Assembly (NCBI GenBank): GCA_021780535.1
Contig: JAJXYN010000012.1
Span: forward strand, 69,688 to 133,687
DNA from: a bacterium
GTDB taxonomy: Bacteria; Patescibacteriota; Patescibacteriia; JAGPKW01
Direction of reading: 5' to 3'
Length of the DNA: 64,000 nucleotides
Notes under the pieces: generated by a model
Told to the model about the DNA's origin: nothing
Databases searched by the model: none
The model's input: the letters and a program-made list of their open reading frames with translations, nothing else
Translations under genes and position numbers: made by a program
Shown here: piece after piece, positions 2,907 to 58,388 of the stretch
Layout of the letters: each line of letters begins with the position of its first letter
Numbering within the stretch: the first letter of the stretch is position 1

Positions 2907-3494
2907 TTATCTAACATAGTCATATTGTTGATAAGATAAAATCTTGTTTTCCAAAACAATCTTTCCACCACTAAAACATCTCACAATCTCTCTTTTCTCA
3001 TCAACACTTCCATTAACCAAAACATGCTTAACATAATCCTTAATATTAATTTCTTTCTTATCCTTATTATCATCCTTATAAATAAGCCTATAAAAGCTAT
3101 TAAACCTATTAATTTCAAGTTTTAATTTATCGCTTATCATTTTCTCATCAATTCTAACCTTATCGACTATTTCTATAAGTTGTTTAATAATCAGATCTTC
3201 TCTCACATAACCATTCTTACAATTTTTATCTTTAGACTTTGTACAACCATAATAAATATAACTTAGAGGCTTTCCATTTTTTAATTTCTTTATTTTTTCT
3301 CTTGCAGATATTCCAGAATTACAAAGTCCACACGTAAATAAATTAGTAAATGCAAATTCTTTATTATTACTTCTGTAATCACATTCACTAGATATTTTCT
3401 CTCTTATTTTTTCAAATACTTCTTTTGTTATTATTGGTTCATGCTGTCCTTTATACCATTTACCATTTCCTTTAGGGATATTCAAAATATCCAT
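2907..3494 (-). CDS. large serine recombinase, C-terminal fragment (recombinase domain + zinc-ribbon), separated from the N-terminal fragment by a frameshift
   Basis: KGNGKWYKGQHEPIITKEVFEKI matches the conserved W..G.HEPII..E.F..VQ block of large serine recombinases. A Cys cluster CGLCNS...YYGC...C forms a zinc ribbon. It overlaps the upstream fragment in a different frame. Confidence 0.7.
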   Translation of the reverse strand: MDILNIPKGNGKWYKGQHEPIITKEVFEKIREKISSECDYRSNNKEFAFTNLFTCGLCNSGISAREKIKKLKNGKPLSYIYYGCTKSKDKNCKNGYVREDLIIKQLIEIVDKVRIDEKMISDKLKLEINRFNSFYRLIYKDDNKDKKEINIKDYVKHVLVNGSVDEKREIVRCFSGGKIVLENKILSYQQYDYVR

Positions 3495-4203
3495 AATAAA
3501 AAGTATTATTAAGCATTAAATAAATATTACTTAATGAAAAATCTTTTCCTGATTTTGTTTTGAAATTTATATCTTTTAACCAATTAAATATCTTTCTTCC
3601 TGAATAATTATCATAAGCAACTTTCTCAAATATTTCTCTTATAATATTCCATCTATCAGGATCTAAATGAATACATCCAGTTCTATCTTTTCTTAAATCA
3701 TTTAGATACCCAGTAGGAGCTACAGCAGGCCATAAACCTTGTTCTACTTTTGCTCTTAAACCTCTTTTTACATTAATACTCTTATTATCATTTTCAAGTT
3801 TTGCTTGTCCTCCTAGAATCATAAGCATAAATTTATCATTAGGAGTATTTTTAAATACTTGATTATATGTTTTTATTTCTATTAATAAGTTTTTATCTAC
3901 TAAGTCTATTAAAGATCCAAGATCTCCAGCGTTTCTAGATAATCTATCAGTATTCCAAGTTAGAAGGGAATTAAACTTCTTATTTTTTAGATCAGAAATA
4001 ATAGAGTTAAAAATATCTCTCTTGCTTGATTCTTTAGCTGAATGACTTTCTTTTTTAATATCAACTATTTCTAATCCTTCTTTTTCTGCTATTTGCATCA
4101 TTTCTTTAATCTGAGAATCAATAGAAAGAGCTTGTCTTTCGTCTTCTTCGCTAGACTTTCTAGCATAAAGACAATATTTCTTTTGAATTATTTGATTATC
4201 CAT
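3472..4203 (-). CDS. large serine recombinase, N-terminal resolvase/invertase catalytic domain fragment
   Basis: YARKSSEEDERQALSIDSQ carries the catalytic Ser in the Y.R.S....Q context, and TDRLSRN is the resolvase DRLSR motif. It ends ...LNNTFYYGYFEYP*; the motif continues KGNGKW in the other frame. Confidence 0.75.
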   Translation of the reverse strand: MDNQIIQKKYCLYARKSSEEDERQALSIDSQIKEMMQIAEKEGLEIVDIKKESHSAKESSKRDIFNSIISDLKNKKFNSLLTWNTDRLSRNAGDLGSLIDLVDKNLLIEIKTYNQVFKNTPNDKFMLMILGGQAKLENDNKSINVKRGLRAKVEQGLWPAVAPTGYLNDLRKDRTGCIHLDPDRWNIIREIFEKVAYDNYSGRKIFNWLKDINFKTKSGKDFSLSNIYLMLNNTFYYGYFEYP

Positions 4204-4217
4204 CTTTTTTATTTTTA

Positions 4218-4310
4218 TTTATCTTTTATTACATTAATGACGTAATAAAAAATTTATATCTAGACTTAAAGAGTAGGTAAACAGTAGATAAAAATGCTTT
4301 TAATTAATCT
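4218..4310. repeat. 92-bp direct repeat, copy A (promoter/operator-like module immediately 5' of the serine recombinase start)
   Basis: About 93% identical to 9418-9509. Contains the imperfect palindrome TTACATTAATGACGTAA with CATTAATG core. On the minus strand a TTTACC-17-TATAAA promoter-like arrangement places the palindrome at or just after the predicted TSS. Confidence 0.65.
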
Positions 4311-4353
4311 GTTTTTGAGCTAGAATATTAACAACTATTAAAAACTAAAAAAT

Positions 4354-4518
4354 ATGACAAATAAAGAAAAACTATTAAAAATCTATGATATTTATAAAAA
4401 ATATCTAGAGAGTATATATGAATTTAATATCAAAGAAAGAAATTTAGTGTTAAAATTTGAAGAAGAAATTGATAAAGCTAAAATAAGCCAAATAAAAAAT
4501 AAATTAAATAAATAAATT
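4354..4518 (+). CDS. small hypothetical protein (54 aa), below the ORF-track cutoff
   Basis: ATG..TAA ORF MTNKEKLLKIYDIYKKYLESIYEFNIKERNLVLKFEEEIDKAKISQIKNKLNK. Its stop lies 3 nt before the 4519 start codon. Confidence 0.25.
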
Positions 4519-6024
4519 ATGTCACTTGAAAATTATCATGAAGAACACGAGAAAAAACAAGAACAAATACAAGAGCTAATTAATACTCTAGAACAAAGAA
4601 AGGACCAATTATTACAAAAAGAAAATATTTCACAAGAAGAGCTAATTGAAGTTAAAAATCAAATAGAATCAGAAATAAATAAGAAAGCACAAGTCGCTGA
4701 ACACGTAGATGATGATTGTTTACTTTCTATAGCTCATGAAATGAAAGCAATAGACATTGATTTGCCAGTAGAAAGAAAAAGAGAAATGTATGAAGCTGTA
4801 GAGGCTTTAGATTCTCAAGTTATAAAAGCAAGAGTTGATGCAAAAATTCAAATAGGTGAAGTATTATATAAAGACCTAGACGCTTCTAATTTTGATTTTG
4901 AAAATTTAAAACAAAACTTTAAAAAATTATATTTAGAATTTTTAGAAATAAGAAAACAACTCATAGACAATAAAGAAAGTCCGGAAATACTTTCTAGCTT
5001 AAAAAGTAAAAAATATGAATTAGGTAAATTATCTCAAATTCTATACTCTAATTCAGAAAATTATGAAGAATTTATAAATAGAATAAAAGAAATATTTATA
5101 GACATAAAAGGTATAGATGAAAAAGATTTTAATGAATATTTTTCAGCAACATTTTTATACCCAGCAAATTTGAAGCCCATAGAAGATAAAGAATATTTAC
5201 CAGGACCTTTTGAATCTATTATATCAACTATAGAGTGCTTAAAAGTTGCAGAAAAAGTTAGAGATTCTGTATCTGATAGTTGTTCTTCTCTTTTATTCTC
5301 AGGATCTTCAATATGGGGTTCATTTTATGCTACAAAAGGTCAAGTACCTCAAGAAGCTGGTGATTATATGTTAGAACAAAGAAAATTAAAAAATATATCA
5401 GATACAGATTTTGTAAGTATATTTGAAGATTTTAACTCTATGGAAGCTGGTATTAAAAAATTAGTTGCTGATAAGATAATATCTGAAGATAGCGTTCAAA
5501 GATTTGAAGAATTTATAAAACTAAAAAAAGACAAGAAGGTTAATTATTTATCTTGTAGAGGTGAAATAAACGGAATAGAAACTAGTATGCATTTTTTTGA
5601 TAAAGAAACCTTTTCTTCATTAAGCGGTTTTATTGATAGTATAAATCCAGAAATAGATGACAGTTTAGTATTTTCTGATTTTAGAAAAGATAGACCAAAA
5701 GGAACTGGATATGAATTAATTAATCCAAATGAAGATGAAAAATCTGAAAAAATAGAGTTTGAAGATTTGGGTGGAATAAAATCTGTTGAACAAGGAAATA
5801 TAGTTCCAGTTGTATTCTTGCTTGAAAATAATAAAAATTTTTATTTAGGTTTAATACCAACACAATTAATGCAAAGTCCAATAAAAATGATTGATAAAGA
5901 TGGATTTGTAGAAGATATATCTAAAAAATTAAAAGATTTTATAATAAAAAATGGTGGCAACCCTGACTCTATAATTAAAAAATTAAGAGCTAGTAGATTA
6001 CCACCTGAATTCCTAGAATCATGA
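4519..6024 (+). CDS. hypothetical protein (501 aa) with coiled-coil N-terminal region
   Basis: Long ORF with no recognised catalytic motif. Confidence 0.55.
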   Translation: MSLENYHEEHEKKQEQIQELINTLEQRKDQLLQKENISQEELIEVKNQIESEINKKAQVAEHVDDDCLLSIAHEMKAIDIDLPVERKREMYEAVEALDSQVIKARVDAKIQIGEVLYKDLDASNFDFENLKQNFKKLYLEFLEIRKQLIDNKESPEILSSLKSKKYELGKLSQILYSNSENYEEFINRIKEIFIDIKGIDEKDFNEYFSATFLYPANLKPIEDKEYLPGPFESIISTIECLKVAEKVRDSVSDSCSSLLFSGSSIWGSFYATKGQVPQEAGDYMLEQRKLKNISDTDFVSIFEDFNSMEAGIKKLVADKIISEDSVQRFEEFIKLKKDKKVNYLSCRGEINGIETSMHFFDKETFSSLSGFIDSINPEIDDSLVFSDFRKDRPKGTGYELINPNEDEKSEKIEFEDLGGIKSVEQGNIVPVVFLLENNKNFYLGLIPTQLMQSPIKMIDKDGFVEDISKKLKDFIIKNGGNPDSIIKKLRASRLPPEFLES

Positions 6025-6204
6025 TGATTCTTTCGGAGACCAGACAGATACTTCGATTTTTGATCCGTCGGGTCTATGTCCAGTAATTCTTTTCTTTGTG
6101 TGTGTTTTTTCAAGTTCCTTAGCGGATTCTTGAAAAAGCATGCAGTCTTCATCATTGTCAGGATTCAATTCATTTTCCTGACTAGAAGTGTTCTTGTCTG
6201 ACAT
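6019..6204 (-). CDS. small hypothetical protein (61 aa), acidic N-terminus
   Basis: ORF in a locally GC-richer stretch; no motif recognised. Confidence 0.3.
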   Translation of the reverse strand: MSDKNTSSQENELNPDNDEDCMLFQESAKELEKTHTKKRITGHRPDGSKIEVSVWSPKESS

Positions 6205-6242
6205 AAGTCCTCCATATAAATATATTATAACACAAAAATATT

Positions 6243-6770
6243 ATGTTTGCAACATATAAACCAATAAAATCTTATTTAAACTTATTAGACAGTAAAAATA
6301 AGAAACCATCTACAGAATTAATGACTTTTTTAGAAAAAGAATATAAAGAAGTTCCTGGATCTTCCAATAATCATCAAACATGGAAAGGTGGTTATTTTGG
6401 ACATATAGAAGATTTGCTAAATATAGCAAATACTTTATACAAAACTTTTGATAAAAAAAGAAAGTTAGATTTTGATTTTAAAGATTGTATAATTGTTTTT
6501 TTACTTCATGATATAGAAAAACCTTTTAGATATGGGAAAGATAATGAATTTAAAAATGAAAAAGAAGAAATAATTCAAGAATTTATTATTAAAAAATATA
6601 ACTTTAAGCTTAATAAAGACCAAAAAAATGCTTTAAAGTATATTCACGGAGAAGAACAAGATTATTCTAGTAAAAAAAGAGTTATGTGTCCTTTGGCGGC
6701 TTTTTGTCATGTTTGTGACAATATAAGTGCTAGAATTTACTTTAATTATCCTCAAAAATTTGGTTGGTAA
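6243..6770 (+). CDS. HD-domain metal-dependent phosphohydrolase-like protein
   Basis: His ... His-Asp pattern: YFGHIEDLL followed by FLLHDIEKP. Confidence 0.55.
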   Translation: MFATYKPIKSYLNLLDSKNKKPSTELMTFLEKEYKEVPGSSNNHQTWKGGYFGHIEDLLNIANTLYKTFDKKRKLDFDFKDCIIVFLLHDIEKPFRYGKDNEFKNEKEEIIQEFIIKKYNFKLNKDQKNALKYIHGEEQDYSSKKRVMCPLAAFCHVCDNISARIYFNYPQKFGW

Positions 6771-6853
6771 TATTTACTTAATATTAGCCAATAAATATCA
6801 AAACGACTCAAATACCTAGTGTCGCATATGTCGCATTAAGCCTCTATTTTTTA
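6771..6853. repeat. ~80-bp intergenic repeat family, copy 1 (TATTTACTTA...ATATTAGCCAATAAATA.CAAAA...AGTGTCGCAT...CCTCTATTTTTT)
   Basis: About 85% identical, with indels, to 11077-11160. Confidence 0.6.
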
Positions 6854-6971
6854 TGTGTAACATTTGTAACATTTTATACTCTACGTACTGTCCAATTTGT
6901 CCAATTTTTTAAGACCGAATTGCTTAGAATATTTTAATAATTTATATTACAAAACGCTTATTGGTATTGAT

Positions 6972-7067
6972 TGCTATAATTTACAGACCGTAATGCTCAG
7001 CCATCCTTCGCATAGCTACGGCTGGCGATGCCAATTTGAGAGATAGACCGTAGTGGGTCTATTTTTT
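6972..7067 (+). promoter_or_regulatory. candidate leader/attenuator or small RNA: extended -10 promoter, three AGACCG(TA) direct repeats and an intrinsic terminator upstream of the 7129 gene
   Basis: TGcTATAAT at 6972-6980. AGACCGTA at 6985-6992 is repeated inside the terminator stem at 7045-7052; AGACCG also occurs at 6912. A hairpin AGCC...GGCT spans 6996-7028, and the segment is GC-rich relative to its surroundings. Confidence 0.3.
7044..7067 (+). terminator. intrinsic terminator-like hairpin (TAGACC-gtagtg-GGTCTA + TTTTTT)
   Basis: 6-bp stem followed by a T6 run. Confidence 0.45.
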
Positions 7068-7128
7068 GTTTATTTATTAATATTGTGTTAATATTTATTA
7101 AAATATAACCAATATTAATCAAATAATT

Positions 7129-7824
7129 ATGAGCAAACTAAAAGAATTTAGTAATTTTTTAAAAAATGTTGATTTGGACTCTTACAGAGTTAAATATAGA
7201 CCAATAAAAATAGTTGAAATGGATTTACCATCAGAGATACAAGCATTAAAATTAATATATAAAACTTATTGGGAAAAAAAGGATTTTATGTCTTTTGATG
7301 ACTTTTATAAAAAATATGAAGATGAATTGAACGAAAAATTAGAAAATTTTAGAAAAAAAATACAAATGTGTGAGCAATGTTTTTATCTTGGTTTACCAGC
7401 AAGAATATATAGAACATGGGCTAGTATTATAACTCAAATACATGCTGGTTATATTGCGGAATCTGTTTTTGGAGATGGTTCTGTTGATATGTCGGAAAAA
7501 TTAGATCATGCTGGAATAGATTTTTTAGTAAATTACAATGGATATATACTAAATTATCAAGTAAAGAAAGAAACTGAAAGTAGAGAAGTAAGAAAAGAAA
7601 AAAAACATAAAAATGAAAATAAAGGAGAATCTATAAATATATTTTATAAAGTACCTCAATCAAAAATATTTGAAGACCCAAAGACAAAAAAAGGAGAGTT
7701 TAGAAAACCATACTTAGATTTTATAAATAATAAAAACTTAGAAAGATATAATAATGGTTTTATTGTTTTTACAAAAGAACAATTTGAAAATAAAAAAAAT
7801 GAAATTGATAATAAAATAAATTAA
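7129..7824 (+). CDS. hypothetical protein (231 aa); candidate restriction endonuclease partner of the adjacent methyltransferase
   Basis: Convergent with the MTase gene, with 3' ends overlapping by 4 nt. Possible degenerate PD-(D/E)xK-like stretch GIDFLV...NYQVKK. No confident motif. Confidence 0.5.
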   Translation: MSKLKEFSNFLKNVDLDSYRVKYRPIKIVEMDLPSEIQALKLIYKTYWEKKDFMSFDDFYKKYEDELNEKLENFRKKIQMCEQCFYLGLPARIYRTWASIITQIHAGYIAESVFGDGSVDMSEKLDHAGIDFLVNYNGYILNYQVKKETESREVRKEKKHKNENKGESINIFYKVPQSKIFEDPKTKKGEFRKPYLDFINNKNLERYNNGFIVFTKEQFENKKNEIDNKIN

Positions 7825-9338
7825 ACTGACTTCAAAAATTCTTCTGCTATTTTTATATAATCAGGATTTATTTCAAATCCTATAAAACTACCTCCGAGTT
7901 TTTTTGTAGCAACACATTCAGAACCAGATCCAACAAAAGGAACTAAAACATTAAAATTACCAATTGGTTTGCAAGATTTTATTAACTTTTCAGATAATTC
8001 AAGCGGTTTTTGAGTCGGATGTTTTATAATATTATGGTCAAGATGTTTTTTTAGTAATTTAGGATTAAAACTTTTATTGCATGTTTTACAATAAAAAAAT
8101 CTTTCTTTTATTCCACTACCCCCAGCTAATGTTGATATTTTAATAACATCTCTTGGTAGGGCGCCGTTTTCATTTGCATTATATATAGTTGTTTTCCCTG
8201 TTTTGTTTAATCTTCCAATAGTGCCTGTTCTGGTTTTGCCAGCAGAATTTTTAAGAAAGCCTTCGGTATATGGCTCTCTTACGTCGTCTTTATTAAAAAT
8301 TTTATTATTTTTCCAACAACATATAATGGATTCATGACTTCTTTGCCAAAAATTTAAAGTTGGCATATTTTTATTTGTATAATGCCACACTAACCATCTT
8401 TTGTTTAAATCTATATTAATGAAAATATATGATAAAATTTCACTAAAACCATAAATAAATATTGTTCCTGTATCTTTTAAGACTCTTTTACATTCAGCCA
8501 TATATTTATTTGTCCAAGATATATAATCTTGAATATCCATGTTATCAAAATTGTTTCCAAAATTTTTTCCTATATTATAAGGAGGATCTATAATTACTAT
8601 ATCAAAAAAGTTATCTGGTAAATCTTTTATACCAATTAATAAGTCTTTCAAATATATTGAATTTAGTTTAATTATATTTTTTTTTGTCTTTTTCTTTTTA
8701 TCTTCTTTAATTTTTTTATTTTTTTCATCACTTAAATTTCTTATAATCTTAACAACAATGCCTCGCACTTCAACTTCTTTTCTAAAAAATGGTAACATTT
8801 GTTGATTTGCTGGTTGTAATCTAAATCCGTTTTTTTCTTTATATATTTTTTTTAAGGTAGCTTTATTTTCATCTATTATAGCAACAACGGTTTGTCCGTT
8901 ATCTGCATATGCTTGTTTTTTTATAACAACCACATCTCCATCAAATATTCCATCATCTATCATGCTATCACCACTAACTTTTAAAGAATAATAATCATTA
9001 TAGGAATTTTTTATTTCCTGTTTTGATAATATAATATCTCTTTCTTTATATTCAATTGCTTCTATTGGTAATCCAGCTGTTATAATCCCTATTAACGGTA
9101 TTTTTATTGTATCATTTCTTTTGTTTAAATTAATTAATTTAATAGATCTACTACTGTGGTTGTCTTTTTTGATAAATTTTTTATTAACCAATGATTCTAT
9201 ATGTTCGTGCACAGTTGACACGGAGGATAAATTAAAATTATTTTTTATTTCTTCTATTGTTGGCGATATATTATTTTTTAATATATAATTTTTTATAAAA
9301 TCATAAATTTCTTTTTGTCTTTTAGTTATTGTTTCCAT
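7821..9338 (-). CDS. LexA-like repressor (wHTH + S24 peptidase) fused to a beta-class DNA methyltransferase (N6-adenine/N4-cytosine)
   Basis: N-terminus KRQKEIYDFIKNY...SPTIEEI...STVHEHIESLVNKKFI is a LexA-type winged HTH. ITAGLPIEA matches the LexA Ala-Gly autocleavage site. VSGDSM plus TLKK form the S24 Ser/Lys dyad. The C-terminal half has DPPY motif IV (DIVIIDPPYNIG) before FxGxG motif I (VPFVGSGSE). Confidence 0.85.
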   Translation of the reverse strand: METITKRQKEIYDFIKNYILKNNISPTIEEIKNNFNLSSVSTVHEHIESLVNKKFIKKDNHSSRSIKLINLNKRNDTIKIPLIGIITAGLPIEAIEYKERDIILSKQEIKNSYNDYYSLKVSGDSMIDDGIFDGDVVVIKKQAYADNGQTVVAIIDENKATLKKIYKEKNGFRLQPANQQMLPFFRKEVEVRGIVVKIIRNLSDEKNKKIKEDKKKKTKKNIIKLNSIYLKDLLIGIKDLPDNFFDIVIIDPPYNIGKNFGNNFDNMDIQDYISWTNKYMAECKRVLKDTGTIFIYGFSEILSYIFINIDLNKRWLVWHYTNKNMPTLNFWQRSHESIICCWKNNKIFNKDDVREPYTEGFLKNSAGKTRTGTIGRLNKTGKTTIYNANENGALPRDVIKISTLAGGSGIKERFFYCKTCNKSFNPKLLKKHLDHNIIKHPTQKPLELSEKLIKSCKPIGNFNVLVPFVGSGSECVATKKLGGSFIGFEINPDYIKIAEEFLKSV

Positions 9339-9417
9339 GTATTTTTATTTATAATAATAATTATATTATACCGAAAATTTTCCGAAAATGTAAATATACT
9401 TTTCCACACGAGATAGT
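9339..9417 (-). promoter_or_regulatory. putative promoter of the LexA-MTase gene, with a near-palindrome in the spacer
   Basis: Minus strand reads TTTACA-18-TATAAT, and the spacer contains the 10-bp perfect palindrome GAAAATTTTC within CCGAAAATTTTCCG. CCGAAAAT is directly repeated. Confidence 0.35.
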
Positions 9418-9509
9418 TTATCTTTTATTACATTAATGACGCAATAAAAAAATTATATCTAGGCTTAAAGAGTAGATAAACAGTAGATAAAAATGCTTTT
9501 AATTAGATA
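9418..9509. repeat. 92-bp direct repeat, copy B (upstream of the LexA-MTase gene)
   Basis: About 93% identical to 4218-4310. Confidence 0.65.
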
Positions 9510-9550
9510 GAGTTTATATTATAATTGATTTATATAATTAAAAAATAAAA

Positions 9551-9904
9551 ATGACTCAGGAAATTCAAGAATTGTTAAATAAAATATATAATGATTTTAG
9601 TATTGAAAAATTTGGATTAAAAAAAGAATCTAGAATTTTTTTGGATAAGTTATTGTTGAATAATGAACATTTAAAAAAATTTTTTGAACTTGAATCTGAT
9701 GAATATGTTTTTAAGTTTATTAATATTATTTATTTAGATTTGATCGAAATAAGAAGTAAAATTAATGGAATTAAAAAAGTGGCTAAAAATTCTAGAAAAT
9801 TTGAAATTTTATTTATAAAATATTTTGGTCATAACTTAGAAAACCTAGAACAAGAGAAAAAAGAAAAGTTAAAAGAATTTATAGAAAAAGAATATAATAA
9901 TTAA
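9551..9904 (+). CDS. hypothetical protein (117 aa)
   Basis: ORF only. Confidence 0.45.
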   Translation: MTQEIQELLNKIYNDFSIEKFGLKKESRIFLDKLLLNNEHLKKFFELESDEYVFKFINIIYLDLIEIRSKINGIKKVAKNSRKFEILFIKYFGHNLENLEQEKKEKLKEFIEKEYNN

Positions 9905-9912
9905 TTGATAAT

Positions 9913-10605
9913 ATGAATTTAGAAAATCTTAATCAAAAAAATTTAATTCCAGAAATTAAAAAAGATATTTTAGAAAAAGTAGAAGCAGATTTATCCATAC
10001 TAAAAAATATAAATATTTTTATTGATAATTATGTTAAAGACTTTGAAGATGAGATTGAAAAATCTAGCTTAGAAGAATCTAAAAAGAAAGAATTGCAAGA
10101 TAAATTAAGATCCAATCTATCTGATATTAAAGATCTTTCATCTGAAATTGATGATATTATCGAAATTAAAATAGAGGTAAGAAATGTTGTCTTAAGTATA
10201 GAAGATAAATTTAAAGATTTAATAAGAGAAGAATTACCTGAAAAATGGCAAGAAATAATTTCTCAAGAAGATTTTAATATTGCAAATATTCAAAAAGACA
10301 AAGAAGATTTATTAAGAGCTAAAGAGTTTAGTGCAAATAGAAAAGAAACCATAGAACTTTATGACATATTATTAGCTACAATTCATCAAATAAATACTGA
10401 TAAACATAGTGGAATTAATGAAATAGACGAGAATGATATACAAAAAATTATAAATGATTTTAAACTTGTTAATAGATTAAATAAAATACTTAATGAAAAT
10501 TTGAATGAAAAAGATTTCAAAAAAAGATATATTTTAATGCAAATGTTAAAAAATAGAATTAAAAGTTTAGAATTTCAAGAAATAAAACAAAAATATCAAA
10601 AATAA
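9913..10605 (+). CDS. hypothetical coiled-coil protein (230 aa)
   Basis: ORF only; charged and coiled-coil-like. Confidence 0.5.
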   Translation: MNLENLNQKNLIPEIKKDILEKVEADLSILKNINIFIDNYVKDFEDEIEKSSLEESKKKELQDKLRSNLSDIKDLSSEIDDIIEIKIEVRNVVLSIEDKFKDLIREELPEKWQEIISQEDFNIANIQKDKEDLLRAKEFSANRKETIELYDILLATIHQINTDKHSGINEIDENDIQKIINDFKLVNRLNKILNENLNEKDFKKRYILMQMLKNRIKSLEFQEIKQKYQK

Positions 10606-10640
10606 AAAAGCGACTCATGTTAGAATCGCTCTTGCGGATG

Positions 10641-10979
10641 TTATCTTTTTCTTTTTTTCCATCCACGAATTGTTGCTATTGCATCGAAATTTTTTTCGTA
10701 ATAAACAAGAAGTTCAAACGCTATATAACTAGCAACTGCATGTTGTTCATATTTTTCAGTTAATTCTTCTAATTTTTTATCTATTTCTTCAAGATTAAAT
10801 TTTTCTGAAAACCAAACTTCTTCATTATAAACTAATTTTGAATCAATTTGACCCTTTTCAATATTATGAATCAATTCAAATTCAATATTAGCTCCAAAAA
10901 TTTCCTTATCAAAAACAATTTTCAAATTTAATGGATCATTTGGATCTTTTATAGTTTGAATAGCGTTTGATTCACTCAT
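10641..10979 (-). CDS. hypothetical protein (112 aa)
   Basis: ORF preceded by tandem duplicated GGAGGA Shine-Dalgarno sequences. Confidence 0.5.
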   Translation of the reverse strand: MSESNAIQTIKDPNDPLNLKIVFDKEIFGANIEFELIHNIEKGQIDSKLVYNEEVWFSEKFNLEEIDKKLEELTEKYEQHAVASYIAFELLVYYEKNFDAIATIRGWKKRKR

Positions 10980-11076: not shown

Positions 11077-11160
11077 ATTTACTTATATTTTATTTAATAT
11101 TAGCCAATAAATACCAAAATAAATCAAATACTTAGTGTCGCATTAAACCTCTATTTTTTG
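11077..11160. repeat. ~80-bp intergenic repeat family, copy 2
   Basis: About 85% identical to 6771-6853. Confidence 0.6.
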
Positions 11161-11178: not shown

Positions 11179-12258
11179 TTATTTGTTAAAACAAGAATTG
11201 CTATTTTGTTTTGTGTCATCAAATATTAAATTAACTCCATCACATTTTTCTCCTCTTAATGTTGAGATTGCTTGATATATAGCATCTTCTGTTTGTTGTC
11301 CTATTAATCTTGAAACCTCATTGTTATTTTTATCTATTAGAATAAATGTTGGTACTCCTATAATTTTGAATTCATTTTTTAGATAAAAATTTTCAGGTTT
11401 TGAAACGTCTATTTTTTTTAAATTTATATTTTTACCATCACATTTTGCAAATACTTGATTTAGAATTGGATCCATTTGTTTACAGATACTACAGTCGCTT
11501 GAATAAAATTCAATTAATGTTGGATAATTATTTTCAGAATTTAATATATAAGATTTTATATTATTTTTTGGACCATTATCTTTATTGAATATATTAAAAT
11601 CAAAAGATGTTGAGAATAGATATATTGATGATATTATCATTAAAATTCCTATTATTATTTCTATTTTTTTAAAATATTTATATATGTATGTTATTTTTGG
11701 TAATAAAATTTCAGAAAAAATTGATACAAGTATAAATGGTGAAAATAAACCAAATCCATATACAAATAAATAGAAAAATCCTAATAATGGACTTATTGAT
11801 TTGCTTAATATGAATGCTAATATACTTCCAAGTATAGGCCCTATACATGGTGACCAACCAGCTCCAAATACAAATCCTAATAAAAAATTATTTAGAATTT
11901 TAAATTTTGTATGAATTTTTGTTTCATTGATTTTTAGAGTTCTTTCAAGAAAAGATATTTTTACAATTCCTAAAAATTTTAAACCAAAAATAAATATTAT
12001 AAAACTACTTAGTATTGAAATGATGCTTTGATATTTATTTAAAAATAAACCAAAAATTGCGAATAAACCGCCAATTAATGCGAATGATGTGATGAATCCA
12101 AAACTGAAAGATAATGATGATTTGATTATATTTGCTTTATTTTTTGTTGATAAATCATTTGATAATATTCCTATATAAATTGGTATCAATGGTAATATGC
12201 AGGGAGTGAAAAATGTTAATGCGCCAGCGAAAAATATTGATATTATGGATAGATCCAT
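11179..12258 (-). CDS. DsbD/CcdA-like transmembrane thiol-disulfide transporter fused to a C-terminal thioredoxin domain
   Basis: Polytopic membrane N-terminal part with the two conserved Cys contexts FTPCILPLIP and GWSPCIGPIL. C-terminal thioredoxin CxxC motif YSSDCSICKQM. Confidence 0.7.
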   Translation of the reverse strand: MDLSIISIFFAGALTFFTPCILPLIPIYIGILSNDLSTKNKANIIKSSLSFSFGFITSFALIGGLFAIFGLFLNKYQSIISILSSFIIFIFGLKFLGIVKISFLERTLKINETKIHTKFKILNNFLLGFVFGAGWSPCIGPILGSILAFILSKSISPLLGFFYLFVYGFGLFSPFILVSIFSEILLPKITYIYKYFKKIEIIIGILMIISSIYLFSTSFDFNIFNKDNGPKNNIKSYILNSENNYPTLIEFYSSDCSICKQMDPILNQVFAKCDGKNINLKKIDVSKPENFYLKNEFKIIGVPTFILIDKNNNEVSRLIGQQTEDAIYQAISTLRGEKCDGVNLIFDDTKQNSNSCFNK

Positions 12259-33858: not shown

Positions 33859-35982
33859 ATGTTAAAAGTTCAAATAGAAAAAAATAAAATATTTTCTCCT
33901 CTTAGAAAAAAATGGTTAATAAATACTCCAGAAGAAGAAGTCAGACAAGGTTATATTTGTAAGCTTGTTAATGATTATGGGTATGATTTAGAACAAATAG
34001 ATGAAGAGTTGCAGGTAAATAATAGTTTAAGAGGACAAGGTAAATCAAGAGCAGATATTGTCATTTGGAAATCAAAAGAAGAAAGGTTGAGCAAAAAAAA
34101 TGCTTTTATTGTTGTTGAATGTAAATCTGATAATGTTGTTATACATCCAGAAGATTATTATCAAGGTAATAACTATGCTTCTTGGGCAAGGGCTAAATTT
34201 TTTATTACTCACAATAATGCTGAAACAAAGTATTTTCAGATGCTTGAAGATAAATTACCTATTGATTTAAATGAAATAGCTAATATACCCAAAGCGGAAG
34301 AAGTAAATAATGAGATTAGATTGAAAGAGTTAGTTGATGAAACTAAAGTATTTACTAGAGATGAATTTTCAAAGTTACTTTATAAATGTCATACAATAAT
34401 TAGAAATAATGACAAACTTTCTCCTGAAGGTGCTTTTGATGAAATTAGTAAAATATTATTTATTAAGATAAGATATGAAAGACAAAAAGGGAAAAATATA
34501 TTTTCTCTTGCTCGTTTTAATGAATTAAAAAATAATTATGAAGAAACTGCTTCTAGAAACTCTAAGCCGTTTTATCAAAATTTATTTGAAAAAACAAAAG
34601 ATGATTTAGAGAAAGATGAACTTTTTGAAACGAATGAAGAGATAAAAATTCGTGAAAATAGCTTTGAACAAATAGTAAAAGAACTGGAGAAATATAATCT
34701 TTCAGATACAGGAGATGATGTTAAAGGAATAGCTTTTGAGCAATTTTTAGGCAAAACATTTAGAGGTGAGCTTGGGCAATTTTTTACTCCTAGAACAATA
34801 GTTGATTTCATGGTTGATATTTTAGACCCAAAAGAAAATGATTTAATTTGTGATCCTTGTTGTGGATCTGGTGGTTTTCTTATTAAAGCTTTTGACTATA
34901 TTAGAGCTAAAATTGAAGCTGATATTTTGAGACAAAAAGAAGAAATCAAAAATAAATATTTTGATGAAAAGTATCAAAAATTAGATGATAAAGAAAAGCA
35001 AAAGATTGATGATACTGTAGAACGTGAATTTAAGAAATTGAATCAAGAACTAGATAATAAAATAGAAAAATCTAGATTACATAATTTATCTCATAATTGT
35101 ATATATGGTTCTGACGCTAATCCAAGAATGGCAAGAACTAGTAAAATGAATATGATTATGCATGGTGATGGTCATGGTGGAGTTCATCATAATGATGGAT
35201 TATTGGATGTTAATGGTATCTTTGAAAACCGTTTTGATATAATTCTTACAAACCCTCCTTTTGGTTCAAGAGTTGGCAAAGATCACAAAATAACAGATAA
35301 TGATAATAAATATAAAGGCAAAGAATCTTATATTAAAGAAAAATTTGGTGATGCAGGTTTAAATGCAATATCTAATTTAGAGAATAACATTGGTAAAAAT
35401 CTTATAGAAACTTATGAAACTGGAAGTTTTTCAACTCTTACAGAAGTTTTGTTTATGGAACGTTATCTAAGATTGCTTAAGCAAGGTGGGAAAATGGCCG
35501 TTGTTTTGCCAGAGGGTTTTTTAAATAATCCAAATTTACAAAAAGTAAGAGAATATTTTGAAGGTAGAGCTAAGATTGAGCTTATCGTTTCTATCCCTCA
35601 GGATGTATTTATAGCTAGCGGGGCTACGGTAAAGCCCAGTTTGGTGTTTTTACAAAAATTTACTCAAGTAGATAGTAAAAAATATGAAAAAATAAAAGAG
35701 GAAGTAAATAAAAATATTATAGAAAAATATCAAATTCAAATAGATGAATTAGAAAATGAATTAGAAAAACTAAAAGGAGATAAAAGAAAACTAAAGAAAA
35801 AAGAATTGGATAATTTAGAAATTCTTATTGAAACTGAGATAAAACAGGAGATTAAAAATAAATTTGATTATCAAATACCAATAGTAGAAGTTGAAAAAGC
35901 TGGCATTACAACAACAGGAGAAAAATGTGAAAATGAACTTTTAGATGTAGTAAAAGAGTATAGAAAATATAAATCTAAATAA
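33859..35982 (+). CDS. restriction-modification enzyme subunit: N-terminal HsdR_N-like PD-(D/E)xK nuclease domain fused to a gamma-class N6-adenine methyltransferase (BcgI A-subunit-like type IIB; alternatively an unusual type I HsdM)
   Basis: N-terminus RGQGKSRADIVIW...IVVECKSDN gives a D...ExK motif. MTase motif I DPCCGSGGFL and motif IV ILTNPPFGS. The adjacent HsdS-like gene and the absence of a helicase-type HsdR in the window fit a BcgI-like A/B system. Confidence 0.7.
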   Translation: MLKVQIEKNKIFSPLRKKWLINTPEEEVRQGYICKLVNDYGYDLEQIDEELQVNNSLRGQGKSRADIVIWKSKEERLSKKNAFIVVECKSDNVVIHPEDYYQGNNYASWARAKFFITHNNAETKYFQMLEDKLPIDLNEIANIPKAEEVNNEIRLKELVDETKVFTRDEFSKLLYKCHTIIRNNDKLSPEGAFDEISKILFIKIRYERQKGKNIFSLARFNELKNNYEETASRNSKPFYQNLFEKTKDDLEKDELFETNEEIKIRENSFEQIVKELEKYNLSDTGDDVKGIAFEQFLGKTFRGELGQFFTPRTIVDFMVDILDPKENDLICDPCCGSGGFLIKAFDYIRAKIEADILRQKEEIKNKYFDEKYQKLDDKEKQKIDDTVEREFKKLNQELDNKIEKSRLHNLSHNCIYGSDANPRMARTSKMNMIMHGDGHGGVHHNDGLLDVNGIFENRFDIILTNPPFGSRVGKDHKITDNDNKYKGKESYIKEKFGDAGLNAISNLENNIGKNLIETYETGSFSTLTEVLFMERYLRLLKQGGKMAVVLPEGFLNNPNLQKVREYFEGRAKIELIVSIPQDVFIASGATVKPSLVFLQKFTQVDSKKYEKIKEEVNKNIIEKYQIQIDELENELEKLKGDKRKLKKKELDNLEILIETEIKQEIKNKFDYQIPIVEVEKAGITTTGEKCENELLDVVKEYRKYKSK

Positions 35983-35983
35983 C

Positions 35984-37339
35984 ATGGTTTCTGTGATAAA
36001 TAAAATTGAATATAAATATTTACAATTCACATCTTTTAAAAATTGGTTAAATTGGGATGTAAAAAGTTATGCAAAAAACAATCTTAAATCAGATTATGAG
36101 TTTATAAAATTAGGCTCTGTGTTAAAAGAACATGTTGAAAAAGTAAAATTAAAAGATTTTCCAGACAAAGAGTTTGGTATTTTAGGTGTAAATAATAAAA
36201 TTGGTATTTTCGATGCTTATTTGGAAAAAGGTTCAAAAATAAATCAGCCATATAAAATATTAAAAAACAATTGGATTGCTTATAATCCTTATCGTGTAAA
36301 TGTTGGTTCAATAGGAATTAAAACACAAAATGAAAAATATGAGTATATAAGTAATGCTTATGTTGTTTTTAGTTGTGATGAACAAAGATTAGATACGGAT
36401 TTCTTTTTTAGACTTTTTAAAACAGATACATTTAATAATCTTGTTAAGAAATCAACGAAAGGTTCTGTTCGTCAAAATCTTTCTTTTGATTTACTTAGTA
36501 ATATTCAAATTCCTTTGCCTTCTATTAGTGCTCAAAAAGAATTTATAAAAATTTATAATAATAAAATATCAGACATTAAAAAACTAGAAATTCAAGTTAA
36601 CGAAATAAGTAGTAAAATTGAAAGTTATTTAATGAAAGAGCTTAATATAAGCGTAGAGAAAACTCAAAAAATAAAAGGTCTTCATTTTGTAAATTTTAAA
36701 AATTTAAATAAGTGGACATTAAATGAAACAACTTTAGAGAAAATACAAGAAAAATCAAAATATAAGGCTGTCCCAATAGAAAAAATATCAGAAAGTATTT
36801 TAAGAGGAAAATCTCCAAAATATGACGATAATTCTAATTGTGTTATTTTAAATCAAAAATGTAATCGTTGGGATGAAATTGATTTGGAATTTGCAAAAAC
36901 AGTAAATAAAGAATGGCTAAATAAGCAAACTCTTTTTACTAAAGAAAGTGATGTTTTGATAAATTCAACCGGCGAAGGAACAATTGGAAGATCTACGTAT
37001 ATATTAAAAAGTTATGAGGGGTTACTTTTTGATAGTCATCTACTTTTATTTAGGGGAGATAAAAAAATTATAAATGGAAAATATTTTGTGTATTGGTTTA
37101 ATTCAACAATAAATCAACAATATCTGAATGAAATAAAATCAGCGCAAACAACAAAACAAACAGAATTAGGATCTAATAATTTAAGTAATATGTTGATTCC
37201 TTTACCACCTCTTGAAACGCAAGAAGAAATAGTAAATCAAATAGATTCTTGGAAAAATAAAATTAAGGATATTAATGAAAAAATTGAGTCATTAAGAGAA
37301 GGTGCTCAAAAAGAATTTGAAGTTAATCTTTTTAAATAG
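35984..37339 (+). CDS. HsdS-like specificity subunit (two target-recognition domains), partner of the upstream nuclease-MTase
   Basis: Start is 2 nt after the upstream stop. Bipartite repeated TRD architecture with conserved central and C-terminal coiled regions. Confidence 0.75.
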   Translation: MVSVINKIEYKYLQFTSFKNWLNWDVKSYAKNNLKSDYEFIKLGSVLKEHVEKVKLKDFPDKEFGILGVNNKIGIFDAYLEKGSKINQPYKILKNNWIAYNPYRVNVGSIGIKTQNEKYEYISNAYVVFSCDEQRLDTDFFFRLFKTDTFNNLVKKSTKGSVRQNLSFDLLSNIQIPLPSISAQKEFIKIYNNKISDIKKLEIQVNEISSKIESYLMKELNISVEKTQKIKGLHFVNFKNLNKWTLNETTLEKIQEKSKYKAVPIEKISESILRGKSPKYDDNSNCVILNQKCNRWDEIDLEFAKTVNKEWLNKQTLFTKESDVLINSTGEGTIGRSTYILKSYEGLLFDSHLLLFRGDKKIINGKYFVYWFNSTINQQYLNEIKSAQTTKQTELGSNNLSNMLIPLPPLETQEEIVNQIDSWKNKIKDINEKIESLREGAQKEFEVNLFK

Positions 37340-37368
37340 ATGCAATAAAGTAAAATTTATAAAAAATA

Positions 37369-37398
37369 AAAAACTAAGATTTATTTCTTAGTTTTTTT
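37369..37398 (+). terminator. intrinsic terminator (AAAAACTAAGA-loop-TCTTAGTTTTT + T run)
   Basis: Hairpin followed by a T run after the HsdS-like gene. Confidence 0.55.
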
Positions 37399-37506
37399 AT
37401 TTTTTATAAAGTTCATGATTTGTTCATTTTTTGCATACCTTATTGAAAAAACATTTAAAAGGTGTATCATTAAATAGTAAATATACTAAATGATTTTTAT
37501 AAAAAT

Positions 37507-38781
37507 ATGAATGAAATTATATGTCCAAATTGTAAAAAAGCTTTTAAAGTTGATGAGGCTGGTTTTGCTGATATTCTTAAACAAGTCCGCGATGAAGCGT
37601 TTAGTAAAGAATTAAAAGAACGTGAGAGAATGTTTGCTGAAGATAAAGAGAATTCTATTAAATTAGCTGAAGCAAATATTAAAAATTTGTTACAAAAAGA
37701 TATTTCAAAAAAAGAAACGGAAATAGCTGAAATAAAAGCTAAAAAAGATTTAGAGATTGCTGAACTTGATGCAAAAAAAGAAGCTGAATTGGCTGAAATG
37801 AAATCAAAAATAGATAATGCAGAAATTGAGAAAAAACTTGCCGTAACTGAAGCAGTAAATAAAATTGAGAAAGATCGTGATAATCTTGCAGGTGAATTAA
37901 AAATTAAAGATACAGAAAAACAATTACTTGAAACATCATTAAAAGAAAAATATATCACAGAACTTAAAACAAAGGATGATATTATTAAAATGAAAGATGA
38001 TGAAATTGCTCTTCGTAAAGATATGAAAGTTAAACTTTCTACAAAAATGATAGGTGAAACATTAGAACAACATTGCGAAACAGAGTTTAATAAACTTCGT
38101 GCTACTGGTTTTCAAAATGCATATTTTGAAAAAGATAATGATGTAAAAACTGGTAGTAAGGGTGATTATATTTATCGTGAAAATACTGAAGAAGGTAATG
38201 AAATTATTTCTATTATGTTTGAAATGAAAAATGAAGGAGATGAAACTGCTACAAAGAAAAAAAATGAAGATTTTTTACGTGAGCTTGATAAAGATCGTAT
38301 AGAGAAAAAATGTGAATACGCGGTGCTTGTTACTCTTCTTGAATCTGAAAATGAATTATATAACACTGGTATCGTTGATGTTTTTCATAAATATCCAAAA
38401 ATGTATGTAATTCGTCCACAATTTTTTATTCAAATAATAACTTTATTACGTAATGCAGCTACGAATTCTCTAAAATATAAAGCAGAACTTGCATTAGTAA
38501 GAAATCAAAATGTTGATATTACAAATTTTGAGGACAATGTAAATAAATTTAAAGAAGAATTTGGAAGAAATTATGAATTGGCCAGTCGTAAGTTTAAAAC
38601 AGCTATTGAAGAAATAGATAAAACAATAGATCATCTTCAAAAAACTAAAGAAGAACTTTTATCATCTGAAAACAACCTTCGTTTAGCCAATAATAAAACA
38701 GAGGATTTAACCATTAAAAAACTAACACGTGGTAATCCTACTATGACAGCTAAATTTGCAGAGATTACAAATATTAAATAA
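37507..38781 (+). CDS. DUF2130-family protein: N-terminal zinc ribbon, long coiled coil, C-terminal PD-(D/E)xK-like region
   Basis: N-terminus [32 protein letters not shown] matches the characteristic DUF2130 start (from memory). The C-terminal GDYIY...IMFEMKNE...CEYAVLV has a D...E.K pattern. Confidence 0.55.
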
Positions 38782-38795
38782 TAACTAAAATATAT

Positions 38796-39008
38796 ATGCA
38801 AAGACAAAATGTTTCATCTTCTGATATTGCTTCAATTGGGTACGATCAAAATTTATTCATATTAGAAATTGAATTTTTAAGTGGAGGAATATATCAATAT
38901 ATTAATGTGCCAAGTAGTATTTTTCAAGGAATAATGTCCGCTTCTTCTCATGGTGTTTATTTTCATCAATATATTAAAGATAAATATAGCTGTAATAAAA
39001 TTAAATAA
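38796..39008 (+). CDS. KTSC-domain small protein (70 aa)
   Basis: ...IASIGYDQNLFILEIEFLSGGIYQYINVPSSIFQGIMSASSHGVYFHQYIKDKY matches the KTSC domain pattern (I..GYD.....L.VEF..G..Y.Y..VP...........SKG.YFN..I...Y). Confidence 0.6.
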   Translation: MQRQNVSSSDIASIGYDQNLFILEIEFLSGGIYQYINVPSSIFQGIMSASSHGVYFHQYIKDKYSCNKIK

Positions 39009-39010
39009 AT

Positions 39011-56291: not shown

Positions 56292-56293
56292 TT

Positions 56294-57586
56294 ATGAATA
56301 ATTATAAAAAGGGAAGTAATTTCATAATAATTATATTTGTGGTTCTCGTACTACTTCCTTCTTTTGTTTTGGTTCCTATAACTAACTTTATATTAAATAA
56401 TGGTGGTGTGGCGTTTTTAGAACTACCTATATTTGCAAAAATATCCGCCTTTATAGCATCTTTTTCTACGATGCTTGGTATTTTTATGATCTATAGACAA
56501 ATAGAAAAAGATAAGAAGGTTAATTCTTCTAGGTTCTTGGTAGATCTAAATGATTCTATAATGTCATTTGAAAGTACTAGAAATGTTTATAAAAAGTTAT
56601 TAGATCTTGAAGATAAGAAATATGATAGAAAGCTTTATGAAAAAGCTTTTAAAACTGATGAGGATAAATATAATTTATTGTCATATTTTGGTTTTTTTGA
56701 AAATTTACAATTTTTTTTAGAAAAGAAAATAATTAAAATCTCGGAAATAAATGATTTATTTTCTAAAAGATTTTTTATAGCTATTAATAATCCTTATATT
56801 CAAGAGGAAATATCAAAAAATGCTGAATCTTGGGTGAATATTTATAAATTATATAAAACTTTTGTTGTTTATAAAAATGATAAAAATATTAAAATCCCGT
56901 ATAAACAATATGCTTTATCAAAGACAAAAGAATATTCTAAATATTCGAAAAACTATTTCAATTATAAATCAATTAAAAACAATTTATTTATAATATTTAT
57001 TTTATCATCATCTATTTTTACATTGTTGTTGTTTTTTTTGTTGATTGCATTTGGTTATCCTGTAAATAATATTTCTAGTATAATAGGTTCTTGTGGTACA
57101 GTTATTGGTGCTTTAGCTATATTTTTTCAACTTAATGTGGAGAATGGAATAAATAAATCTAGATTTCTTTTTGAATTGAATAAATCATTTCTCTCTAAAG
57201 AATATTTTAAAGAAATAAATGTTTTAGCTTCATATAATATTAATTATAATAAAAAATTTAATTTAAAAAATAATTTGTTTAGTAAGGTAAAAATAGAAAA
57301 TTTGTTTAATTATTTAACATTTTTTGAATCAATAAATATAATGTTAGAAAACCATGGATTAGATGCTTCTGAAATAAATTCATTTTTTGGTTTTAGATTT
57401 TTTGTTGTAGTAAATAATCCTTATATTCAAGATATTTTATTAATAAAAGATGCTGTATATTTTAAAAATATTTATAGATTGCATGATAAATTAATAAAAT
57501 ATAGAAAATTTAAGTTTTTAGATGTTATATATGGTAACTATTCTTTAGAAAAAAGATATCAAAACTATAAGCAATTATTAAAATAA
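56294..57586 (+). CDS. hypothetical membrane protein (430 aa) with internal tandem duplication; paralog of 58387-59688
   Basis: Two repeats of a TM-hairpin plus soluble module (..YRQIEKDKK..SRFLVDLN.. and ..KSRFLFELNKSFLSKE..). Aligns end to end with 58387-59688. Confidence 0.5.
   Translation: MNNYKKGSNFIIIIFVVLVLLPSFVLVPITNFILNNGGVAFLELPIFAKISAFIASFSTMLGIFMIYRQIEKDKKVNSSRFLVDLNDSIMSFESTRNVYKKLLDLEDKKYDRKLYEKAFKTDEDKYNLLSYFGFFENLQFFLEKKIIKISEINDLFSKRFFIAINNPYIQEEISKNAESWVNIYKLYKTFVVYKNDKNIKIPYKQYALSKTKEYSKYSKNYFNYKSIKNNLFIIFILSSSIFTLLLFFLLIAFGYPVNNISSIIGSCGTVIGALAIFFQLNVENGINKSRFLFELNKSFLSKEYFKEINVLASYNINYNKKFNLKNNLFSKVKIENLFNYLTFFESINIMLENHGLDASEINSFFGFRFFVVVNNPYIQDILLIKDAVYFKNIYRLHDKLIKYRKFKFLDVIYGNYSLEKRYQNYKQLLK
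57305..57418. repeat. 114-bp direct repeat, copy 1 (inside the coding region of 56294-57586)
   Basis: About 96% identical to 58275-58388. Confidence 0.6.
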
Positions 57587-57588
57587 AA

Positions 57589-58287: not shown

Positions 58288-58388
58288 CATTTTTTGAATC
58301 AATAAATATAATGTTGGAAAATCATGGATTAGATGTTCCTGAAATAAATTCATTTTTTGGTTTTAGATTTTTTATTGTAGTAAATAAT
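58275..58388. repeat. 114-bp direct repeat, copy 2 (spanning the racemase stop codon and the start of the second paralog)
   Basis: About 96% identical to 57305-57418. Confidence 0.6.

Follow-up and report, generated by a model that had tools for sequence, protein, structure and literature searches.

A duplicated intergenic module tied to a large serine recombinase gene in Patescibacteria, with a possible role as control region and recombination junction

The res sites of the Tn3/gamma-delta and Sin serine recombinases are some 90-120 bp long, immediately precede the recombinase gene within a divergent intergenic region, where they overlap promoters, and act as two direct repeats on one molecule. 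To our knowledge, the mobile genetics of the Patescibacteria are almost unknown. Here we examine a 64,000-nucleotide stretch of DNA (hereafter the window; positions 69,688 to 133,687 of contig JAJXYN010000012.1, assembly GCA_021780535.1) from a bacterium of the Patescibacteriota, in which an 89-nt intergenic module occurs twice, as copy A1 beside a gene for a large serine recombinase and as copy A2 beside a gene encoding a LexA-methyltransferase fusion. A sequence-only reading had taken the module to be one operator shared by these two genes, in the layout of an SOS-inducible mobile element. We conclude that it is a region conserved in front of the gene for a large serine recombinase of a narrow lineage, most likely of Patescibacteria, and that it probably acts as a control and junction module linked to this recombinase, its second copy being the footprint of a recombination event. 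This removes the SOS-controlled recombinase and replaces it with a testable account, in which a short, strongly constrained, recombinase-tied sequence in uncultivated AT-rich bacteria marks the site at which unrelated gene blocks, including restriction-modification genes, are swapped and is the probable source of their expression. Should the module be a substrate of the recombinase, the Patescibacteria would offer a simple natural system of cassette exchange. The features on which the argument turns are as follows.

4218..4306, no strand: module copy A1, 14 nt ahead of the recombinase ATG (4203) and upstream of the plus-strand operon 1; homologous to the modules of contigs L001-L008
9417..9505, no strand: module copy A2, the sole copy with no recombinase beside it, located between the promoter of the LexA-methyltransferase gene and the plus-strand operon 2
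4231..4306 (A2: 9430-9505), no strand: 76-nt constrained core, ACATTAATGACG...GCTTTTAATTA
4224..4250, no strand: inverted repeat TTTTATTAC-N9-GTAATAAAA around the CATTAATG box (4232-4239), the 'operator' of the sequence-only reading
4273..4292, plus: tandem repeats GTAGGTAAA (4273-4281) and GTAGATAAA (4284-4292), 11-nt period; in A2 at 9472-9480 and 9483-9491
4253..4281, minus: leftward promoter-like TTTACC-17-TATAAA of A1, facing the recombinase, read from the sequence; A2 has TTTATC-17-TATAAT
4298..4326, plus: rightward promoter-like element straddling the module edge, TTTTAA (4298-4303), 17 nt, TAGAAT (4321-4326); in A2 TTTTAA at 9497-9502 and TATAAT at 9520-9525
2907-4203, minus: large serine recombinase in two overlapping frames, with Resolvase, Recombinase and zinc ribbon domains (Pfam)
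2907..4203, minus: its open reading frames (ORFs), ORF1 at 3472-4203 and ORF2 at 2907-3494 (+1 frame), shift site at about 3469-3480
4307..9416, no strand: block between the module copies, holding operon 1, repeat B1, a small RNA (sRNA)-like element, a TaqI-like nuclease gene and the LexA-methyltransferase gene; missing from L001/L007
7821-9338, minus: LexA-S24-N6/N4 methyltransferase gene, convergent with the nuclease gene
9365..9394, minus: near-consensus promoter of the LexA-methyltransferase gene, TTTACA-18-TATAAT, with TTCGGAAAATTTTCGG (9371-9386) in its spacer, between A2 and the ATG

Like a res site, the module is directly upstream of a recombinase gene, overlaps the predicted promoter region and occupies a divergent intergenic region. 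It is present as two direct copies 5199 nt apart, a single-module form exists in two relatives (L001/L007), and, as in Sin site II, its internal repeats are in direct orientation. It departs from the res systems in that the enzyme is a large serine recombinase (~431 amino acids (aa) when its frames are fused) and not a small resolvase with a C-terminal helix-turn-helix, in that no dyad-symmetric crossover site stands out, and in that the module alone is duplicated here instead of a whole transposon. The attP, attL and attR sites of the large serine integrases TP901-1, phiC31 and Bxb1 resemble the module in adjoining the recombinase gene and in having occupied and empty forms among relatives. 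However, those sites are ~40-50 bp long, mutually unlike and share a core only after integration, whereas here 89 bp are duplicated without an imperfect ~40-50-bp dyad around a central dinucleotide, and the recombinase is outside the inserted block.

Repeat search placed the direct repeat at 4218-4306 and 9417-9505, both on the plus strand, with 85 of 89 nt identical (96%). This confirms the near-identical sequence that had been reported at both places, save that A2 begins at 9417, not 9418; extension to 4310/9509 brings in three mismatches and gives ~92.5% identity, the '93%' of the earlier description. Pairwise alignment of A1 with A2 revealed that the flanks are unrelated on both sides and that identity ends abruptly. 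Since independent assemblies from the same sample (L010 and L013) span each copy with its own unique flanks, the duplication is not an assembly artefact. A 23-nt core pattern allowing up to three mismatches matched A1 and A2 only in the 64 kb (none expected in shuffled sequence), and an nhmmer profile built from all known copies detected no diverged third copy in the window. Beyond it, a left-arm pattern gave one match among 185,579 species genomes and an invariant-core pattern two among 241 million metagenome records; viral contigs yielded neither a match to the module pattern nor relatives. With two copies per 64 kb and matches very rare in the genome, metagenome and viral collections, a generic dispersed repeat or miniature inverted-repeat transposable element, the outcome that the sequence-only reading had named as fatal to its own proposal, was rejected, as was a viral origin, given the lack of relatives in viral contigs.

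External copies of the module are carried by eight contigs (L001-L008) that represent about five to six distinct sequences, L007 having the L001 sequence, L008 the L003 sequence and L006 being partial. L001, L002 and L003 were retrieved by unbiased exact-pattern scans of genome and metagenome DNA, and L004-L008 from the contigs of the closest recombinase homologues. On all eight contigs, including the three from the unbiased scans, the gene that the module immediately precedes encodes a close relative of the recombinase. Most copies lie 14-20 nt from its ATG, with an additional insert of ~60 nt in L003 and L008, and on none of the contigs is a LexA-methyltransferase found beside the module. 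The right-hand flanks belong to three or more unrelated families: in A1, L003 and L008 the module is followed by the start of operon 1 (L002 matches only its first ~24 nt and then diverges), operon 2 follows it in A2, L001 and L007, and two further unrelated genes do so in L004 and L005. The DNA past the 3' end of the recombinase gene is also variable, with a 1347-aa ORF in the window, a HindIII-type restriction-modification pair in L004 and unknown genes in L003 and L008. Since flanks differ on both sides among these contigs, the conserved unit, as delimited by their comparison, is the module together with most of the recombinase gene. The junctions are clustered, and the module is the site where unrelated gene blocks join the recombinase.

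The arrangement of relatives also bears on how A2 arose. L001 and L007 have the order recombinase-module-operon 2, with a single module and no LexA-methyltransferase on the 3.2-kb contig; their recombinase DNA is ~91-94% identical to that of the window and the 230-aa protein of operon 2 is 88% identical. Compared with them, the window has 5199 nt extra, made up of one module copy and the block at 4307-9416. Because the same operon 2 is present in this single-module form, comparison of the two forms identifies the 5.2 kb between the window copies as an insertion or deletion bracketed by the module, one copy per side, and it is because of this event that A2 is located beside the LexA-methyltransferase gene. 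DNA carrying one module would have recombined with the resident module, or else, in the reverse direction, L001 would have lost the block. The arrangement would in either case derive from recombination between two module copies, the agent being the adjacent recombinase, for which the module would be a res- or att-like site, or homologous recombination across 89 bp. The within-sample assemblies L010 and L013 have both copies intact, and the deletion form was not seen in them. We also considered the module as the native regulatory region of operon 2, which was rejected because a further contig (L023) has the 230-aa/112-aa gene pair without the module and without the 117-aa gene.

To gauge constraint, divergence of the module was set against that of the gene it precedes. 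Across seven distinct sequences the 76-nt core shows one to five differences per pair (one between A2 and either L003 or L004), compared with 0.19-0.24 differences per synonymous site of the adjacent recombinase ORF1, which places core divergence 3-15 times below that of the synonymous sites. On this measure the module is therefore either constrained or homogenised by recombination. The most invariant stretch, the 43-nt AAAGAGTAGATAAACAGTAGATAAAAATGCTTTTAATTA, holds both GTAGATAAA repeats; the tandem repeats are invariant in all close relatives and are accompanied by TTATATCTA, a weak partner in inverted orientation. In L021, whose recombinase is 66% identical, GAGTTGATAAA-GAGTTGATAAG occupies the equivalent place, with two GTTGATAA repeats of 11-nt period, and a repeat of fixed position and period with a drifting sequence looks like a protein-binding site. 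The CATTAATG box and the ACGCAA that follows it are conserved, and L022, with a recombinase of 69% identity, keeps GCGTCATTAATGT as well as CCTAGA and TTTATCAAC. The module would seem to be densely occupied by conserved, predicted protein-binding sites, namely the two GTAGATAAA repeats, spaced by one turn of the helix, the CATTAATG box and a CTAG block. Its dyad symmetry does not rise above the AT-rich background (best arms of 12/20 and 14-15/24, against background means of 11.5 and 13.2).

Both the TTTACC-17-TATAAA element and the inverted repeat are present in A1 as the sequence-only reading described them (4281-4253 on the minus strand and 4224-4250, respectively). Of the promoter/operator-like character ascribed to the module, the first half stands: it is promoter-like, it lies in a mobile, variable region, and the CATTAATG box is conserved in front of the recombinase as far as L022. 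The operator half fares worse. The inverted repeat is perfect in A1 only, a G-T mismatch being present in most copies, and its left arm is replaced by TTTATATAC in L002, L003 and L005 (three of the seven distinct variants). Nor did a motif search recover a palindrome regulon in the window, where ATTAC-N9-GTAAT has eight matches against 5.8 expected and is not enriched.

A second promoter-like element faces the other way, out of the module. A TAnnnT hexamer is located exactly 17 nt past TTTTAA in all seven sequences, across three unrelated flank families and in the forms TAGAAT, TATAAT, TAAAAT, TATACT and TAAGAT, against a background of 0.039 per position. We take this as a predicted outward promoter that lies across the edge of the module and has its upstream half inside it. 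The region would then be a compact two-way control region, in which the rightward -35 element is provided by the last module bases and the -10 element, 17 nt on, by whichever block is attached, and a weaker leftward promoter-like element would face the recombinase. Both module copies are found in divergent intergenic regions, so the plus-strand operons are as much 'downstream' of them as the two minus-strand genes.

The gene to the left of A2 has a promoter of its own. Its product is a complete LexA (DNA-binding domain and S24 peptidase) fused to an N6/N4 methyltransferase and belongs to a family with 6174 matches at E < 1e-10 (typically ~506 aa, ~55% identical; Patescibacteria), and it is convergent with a TaqI-family nuclease gene in all contexts examined. 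A2 is 78 nt from the LexA-methyltransferase ATG (9338), upstream of the promoter of that gene, in which the 18-nt spacer is TTTTCGGAAAATTTTCGG. Relatives with 54-59% identity have TTGACT-TCGGTAAATTTTCGG-TATATA (L015), TTGATG-TTCGGGTAATCTTCGGG-TATAAT (L016) and TTGATT-TTCTATTTTCTTTCGAT-TATACT (L018), and a direct repeat TTCGG-N6-TTCGG of 11-nt period recurs in the -35/-10 spacer of all four family members examined, in degenerate form in L018. The exact repeat occurs once in the window (9371-9386) and is absent from the module; a regulon of such sites within the window was rejected, relaxed matches being at chance level. TTCGG-N6-TTCGG is a much better candidate for the operator of the LexA domain than the module palindrome. 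No module was found beside any other LexA-methyltransferase examined (L015-L020), and the gene beside A2 is, on its sequence context, a passenger with its own promoter and predicted operator. As read from the sequence, the Ala-Gly site of cleavage is retained in the protein together with the Ser and Lys of self-cleaving LexA, so the restriction-modification system may respond to RecA-dependent cleavage, with an autoregulated methylase. We found no paper on LexA-methyltransferase fusions.

Two further observations concern this family. A DnaA-box-like TGTGGATAA recurs upstream of LexA-methyltransferase genes (window 9401-9409 on the minus strand; L015, L016 and L018), with the variants TGTGGAAAA in the window and TGGGGATAA in L018, and the GTAGATAAA repeats of the module match it at seven of nine positions. 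In L018, 294-nt inverted repeats of 98% identity (1150-1443 / 5563-5856) surround a 4.1-kb segment that encodes a TIR/SEFIR protein, the LexA-methyltransferase, a TaqI-like nuclease and a helix-turn-helix protein and that adjoins a gene for a 394-aa serine recombinase, itself bracketed by inverted repeats of 82-116 nt. The 4.1-kb segment has opposite orientations relative to QueH in two samples (L018 and L020). This may point to a defence segment that inverts, or else to ambiguous assembly, as an assembler could yield either orientation, and we do not rely on it.

The recombinase encoded next to A1 has the Pfam domains Resolvase, Recombinase and Zn_ribbon_recom, and its nearest solved relative is the catalytic domain of TP901-1 integrase. 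The frame is split at TAT-CCC-TAA-AGG, a site that is kept in all close relatives (including L003, L004, L005, L007 and L011) and also in L022 (69% identity); a single 426-aa ORF is found in the 66% relative. A +1 shift after CCC would give a 431-aa product, which aligns without gaps across the junction to the 426-aa single-ORF homologue. Both halves are under purifying selection, with ratios of non-synonymous to synonymous differences per site (pN/pS) of 0.05-0.12 and 0.16-0.35 and pS of up to 0.42. The split thus likely represents a conserved programmed +1 frameshift, and the low pN/pS of both halves, the conserved shift site and the collinear fusion together imply that the recombinase is probably functional. 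No paper on frameshifting in large serine recombinases was found. This conserved frameshift, and the very large LexA-methyltransferase/TaqI-like family with its common operator-like motif, are possibly of wider interest than the repeat itself. In L022 a tRNA gene is located on the opposite strand at ~6250-6330, ~140 nt past the recombinase stop codon, and a divergent ArsR/thioredoxin/ArsP operon precedes the recombinase, as is typical where an integrative element adjoins a tRNA gene.

The remaining features of the variable region are listed below.

4354-6770, plus: operon 1, genes for proteins of 53, 501 and 175 aa, the 175-aa protein with a weak HD-domain match
6773-6852, no strand: repeat B1, paired with B2
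6983-7075, plus: GC-rich, terminator-ended, sRNA-like element
7129-7824, plus: TaqI-family nuclease gene
9551-10605, plus: operon 2, genes for proteins of 117 and 230 aa
10641-10979, minus: gene for a 112-aa protein, grouped with operon 2 (9551..10979)
11089-11159, no strand: repeat B2
11179-12258, minus: chromosomal DsbD/thioredoxin gene

The rest of the window is ordinary chromosome (aminoacyl-tRNA synthetases, glycosyltransferases) of 22-32% G+C, and the closest homologues of the recombinase and of the LexA-methyltransferase are both labelled Patescibacteria/candidate phyla radiation. Apart from the weak HD-domain match, Pfam and PADLOC gave no assignment for operon 1, operon 2, the 1347-aa neighbour or the flanking genes of L001-L005. 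The B repeats, a pair of 55 nt at 89% identity in the repeat search that extends to ~80 nt with a 9-nt indel, are found one at the distal end of each of the two cargo blocks, and a further copy is present in L001 (499-573).

Three other classes of element invite comparison. As in the integron platform (intI, attI and Pc), the recombinase is transcribed away from the adjacent site, a predicted outward promoter points into variable blocks of mostly unknown function, and a second repeat (B) is found at the far end of each block. In contrast, integron integrases are tyrosine recombinases and their cassettes are mostly promoterless and end in attC hairpins, whereas here it is the upstream module that is repeated and the 'cassettes' are multi-gene blocks. 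Mobile promoters, and the outward -35 elements at the ends of insertion sequences, likewise place a near-identical 5' region before non-homologous genes and form hybrid promoters, here with the -35 predicted in the conserved part and the -10 in the flank; the module differs from them in its very low copy number, its constant association with one recombinase gene and its full-length conservation beyond the needs of a promoter. The LexA (SOS) operators resemble it in having a repressor-type gene nearby and a palindrome close to a promoter-like element, but this palindrome is not conserved and the LexA-methyltransferase family shares a different motif in its own promoter. From each class that we compared the module differs in at least one defining feature that was tested, and what we describe is a repeated regulatory/recombination junction beside a site-specific recombinase.

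On balance we consider it probable that the module is a recombinase-linked control and junction element with a recombination footprint as its second copy, on predicted promoter activity, protein binding and recombination. Several observations weigh against this. The module has no dyad symmetry above background and is in this respect unlike a typical serine-recombinase crossover site, and the 4307-9416 insertion/deletion does not include the recombinase gene (2907-4203), whereas a classical integrase gene is part of its element. The points at which flanks switch are spread over ~25 nt of the module edge instead of falling on one nucleotide (+3 to +5 between flank families, +19 for L004 vs L005 and +24 for L002 vs L003), and because of this scatter homology-driven exchange fits at least as well as site-specific exchange, the 89 bp of identity being sufficient for homologous recombination. 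Furthermore, copies differ in the final base of the leftward -10 hexamer (A, T, G, G), which leaves the leftward promoter TTTAYC-17-TATAAN uncertain; gene conversion, and not purifying selection, could account for part of the low divergence of the module; and the external copies, about five to six of them distinct, are all on short contigs. A more specific proposal, to which we give tentative credence, is that the module is the res- or att-like site of the adjacent recombinase, the 5.2-kb block being an inserted cassette that could be excised as a circle to leave recombinase-module-operon 2. It would account for a module that invariably adjoins the recombinase, for two direct copies that bracket an insertion/deletion with a single-module form in L001/L007, for a 43-nt almost invariant stretch that exceeds the needs of a promoter, and for tandem repeats kept in the 66% relative, and it gains from purifying selection on both recombinase halves. 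Tn3 and Sin family res sites are similarly directly upstream of the resolvase gene, with a direct repeat in Sin site II. The L018/L020 restriction-modification segment, found in both orientations between 294-nt inverted repeats with a serine recombinase adjacent, also speaks for it, although that inversion could be an assembly ambiguity across the 294-nt repeat. It has to contend, however, with the missing dyad symmetry, with junctions that do not fall at a single nucleotide, with a recombinase outside the cassette, and with the fact that large serine recombinases normally use unlike attP and attB and not two identical 89-bp sites. Taken to its full extent, it would become a serine-recombinase cassette platform in Patescibacteria with integron-like logic and unrelated enzymology, in which the module would be both crossover site and outward promoter, capturing and expressing multi-gene and restriction-modification blocks, and a conserved programmed +1 shift at CCC-UAA-A would yield the recombinase and could set how much of it is made; as a whole, this scheme appears doubtful.

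An alternative treats recombinase and module as a mobile unit of ~1.4 kb whose right end provides the outward -35 element, A2 being the solo end of a second copy with its recombinase lost or replaced. This would agree with conservation limited to the module and most of the recombinase gene between variable flanks, with the hybrid promoter geometry at every junction and with a 12-nt inverted repeat CATTTTTATCTA that is found at 2901-2912, overlapping the recombinase stop codon, and at 4285-4296, inside the module (the 11-mer AGATAAAAATG within it has only three occurrences in the 64 kb). We nevertheless regard it as unlikely, as L003 and L004 match the inverted repeat at only 8/12 positions, the genome and metagenome scans point to a very low copy number, and there are neither target-site duplications nor a recombinase remnant beside A2. 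The operator model of the sequence-only reading, in which the LexA-like protein represses both the recombinase and its own gene through the palindrome at the predicted start and SOS induction relieves both, is very unlikely. Both copies do have TTTAYC-17-TATAAW followed by the CATTAATG box, the LexA-methyltransferase retains its self-cleavage residues, and transcripts from A2 could read through into its gene. Nonetheless, the module is linked to the recombinase in all external copies and accompanies no other LexA-methyltransferase examined, L001/L007 have module and operon 2 with no such gene on their 3.2-kb contig, the left arm of the palindrome is lost in three of seven variants, and the LexA-methyltransferase has a separate promoter whose family-conserved TTCGG-N6-TTCGG is absent from the module. 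Some regulator other than the LexA-like protein may act on both module copies. That the module is conserved for its RNA structure, as a small RNA or as a 5' leader, is scarcely credible. The minus-strand fold of A2 has z = -2.6 and a T-to-C difference between the copies preserves a minus-strand G-U pair, but the A1 folds (z = -0.5 and -1.6) are no better than shuffled sequence, the consensus fold of -7.3 kcal/mol contains no covarying pair, the left arm of the hairpin is replaced in three variants and the module has no Rfam match even at E = 1; a known or structured RNA was rejected on these grounds.

Other sequences in these islands deserve brief description. A junction sequence, TGGCAAGAAAT-TGGA-TAATGTTGC (encoding ...KWQE[IM]W[IN]NVA*), is common to L001 (26-51) and L003 (4119-4144), where it terminates truncated or chimeric copies of cargo genes, which suggests further recombination scars in these islands. 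On its minus strand the B repeat has a Shine-Dalgarno-like sequence followed by a mini-ORF, MRH(MRH)*. The region 6828-7075 contains three tandem 9-mer pairs, TGTCGCATATGTCGCATT, TGTAACATTTGTAACATT and TGTCCAATTTGTCCAATT, followed by a promoter-like TGCTATAAT site, and short-read assemblies of the sample break within it. The GC-rich element of ~90 nt at its end, which shortly precedes the TaqI-like nuclease gene, has an intrinsic terminator (-28.9 kcal/mol, z = -2.9) as its last part and could be a small RNA or an attenuator that controls the nuclease.

Elsewhere in the window, defence- or mobile-element-like genes are located at 33859-40897 and 54072-58915, including an N6-methylase/HsdR-N fusion with a specificity subunit, an OLD-family ATPase-TOPRIM protein and a TrwB/TraG-like coupling protein. 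Repeated segments are present at 56741-58915, among them 114 nt at 96% identity (57305-57418 / 58275-58388).

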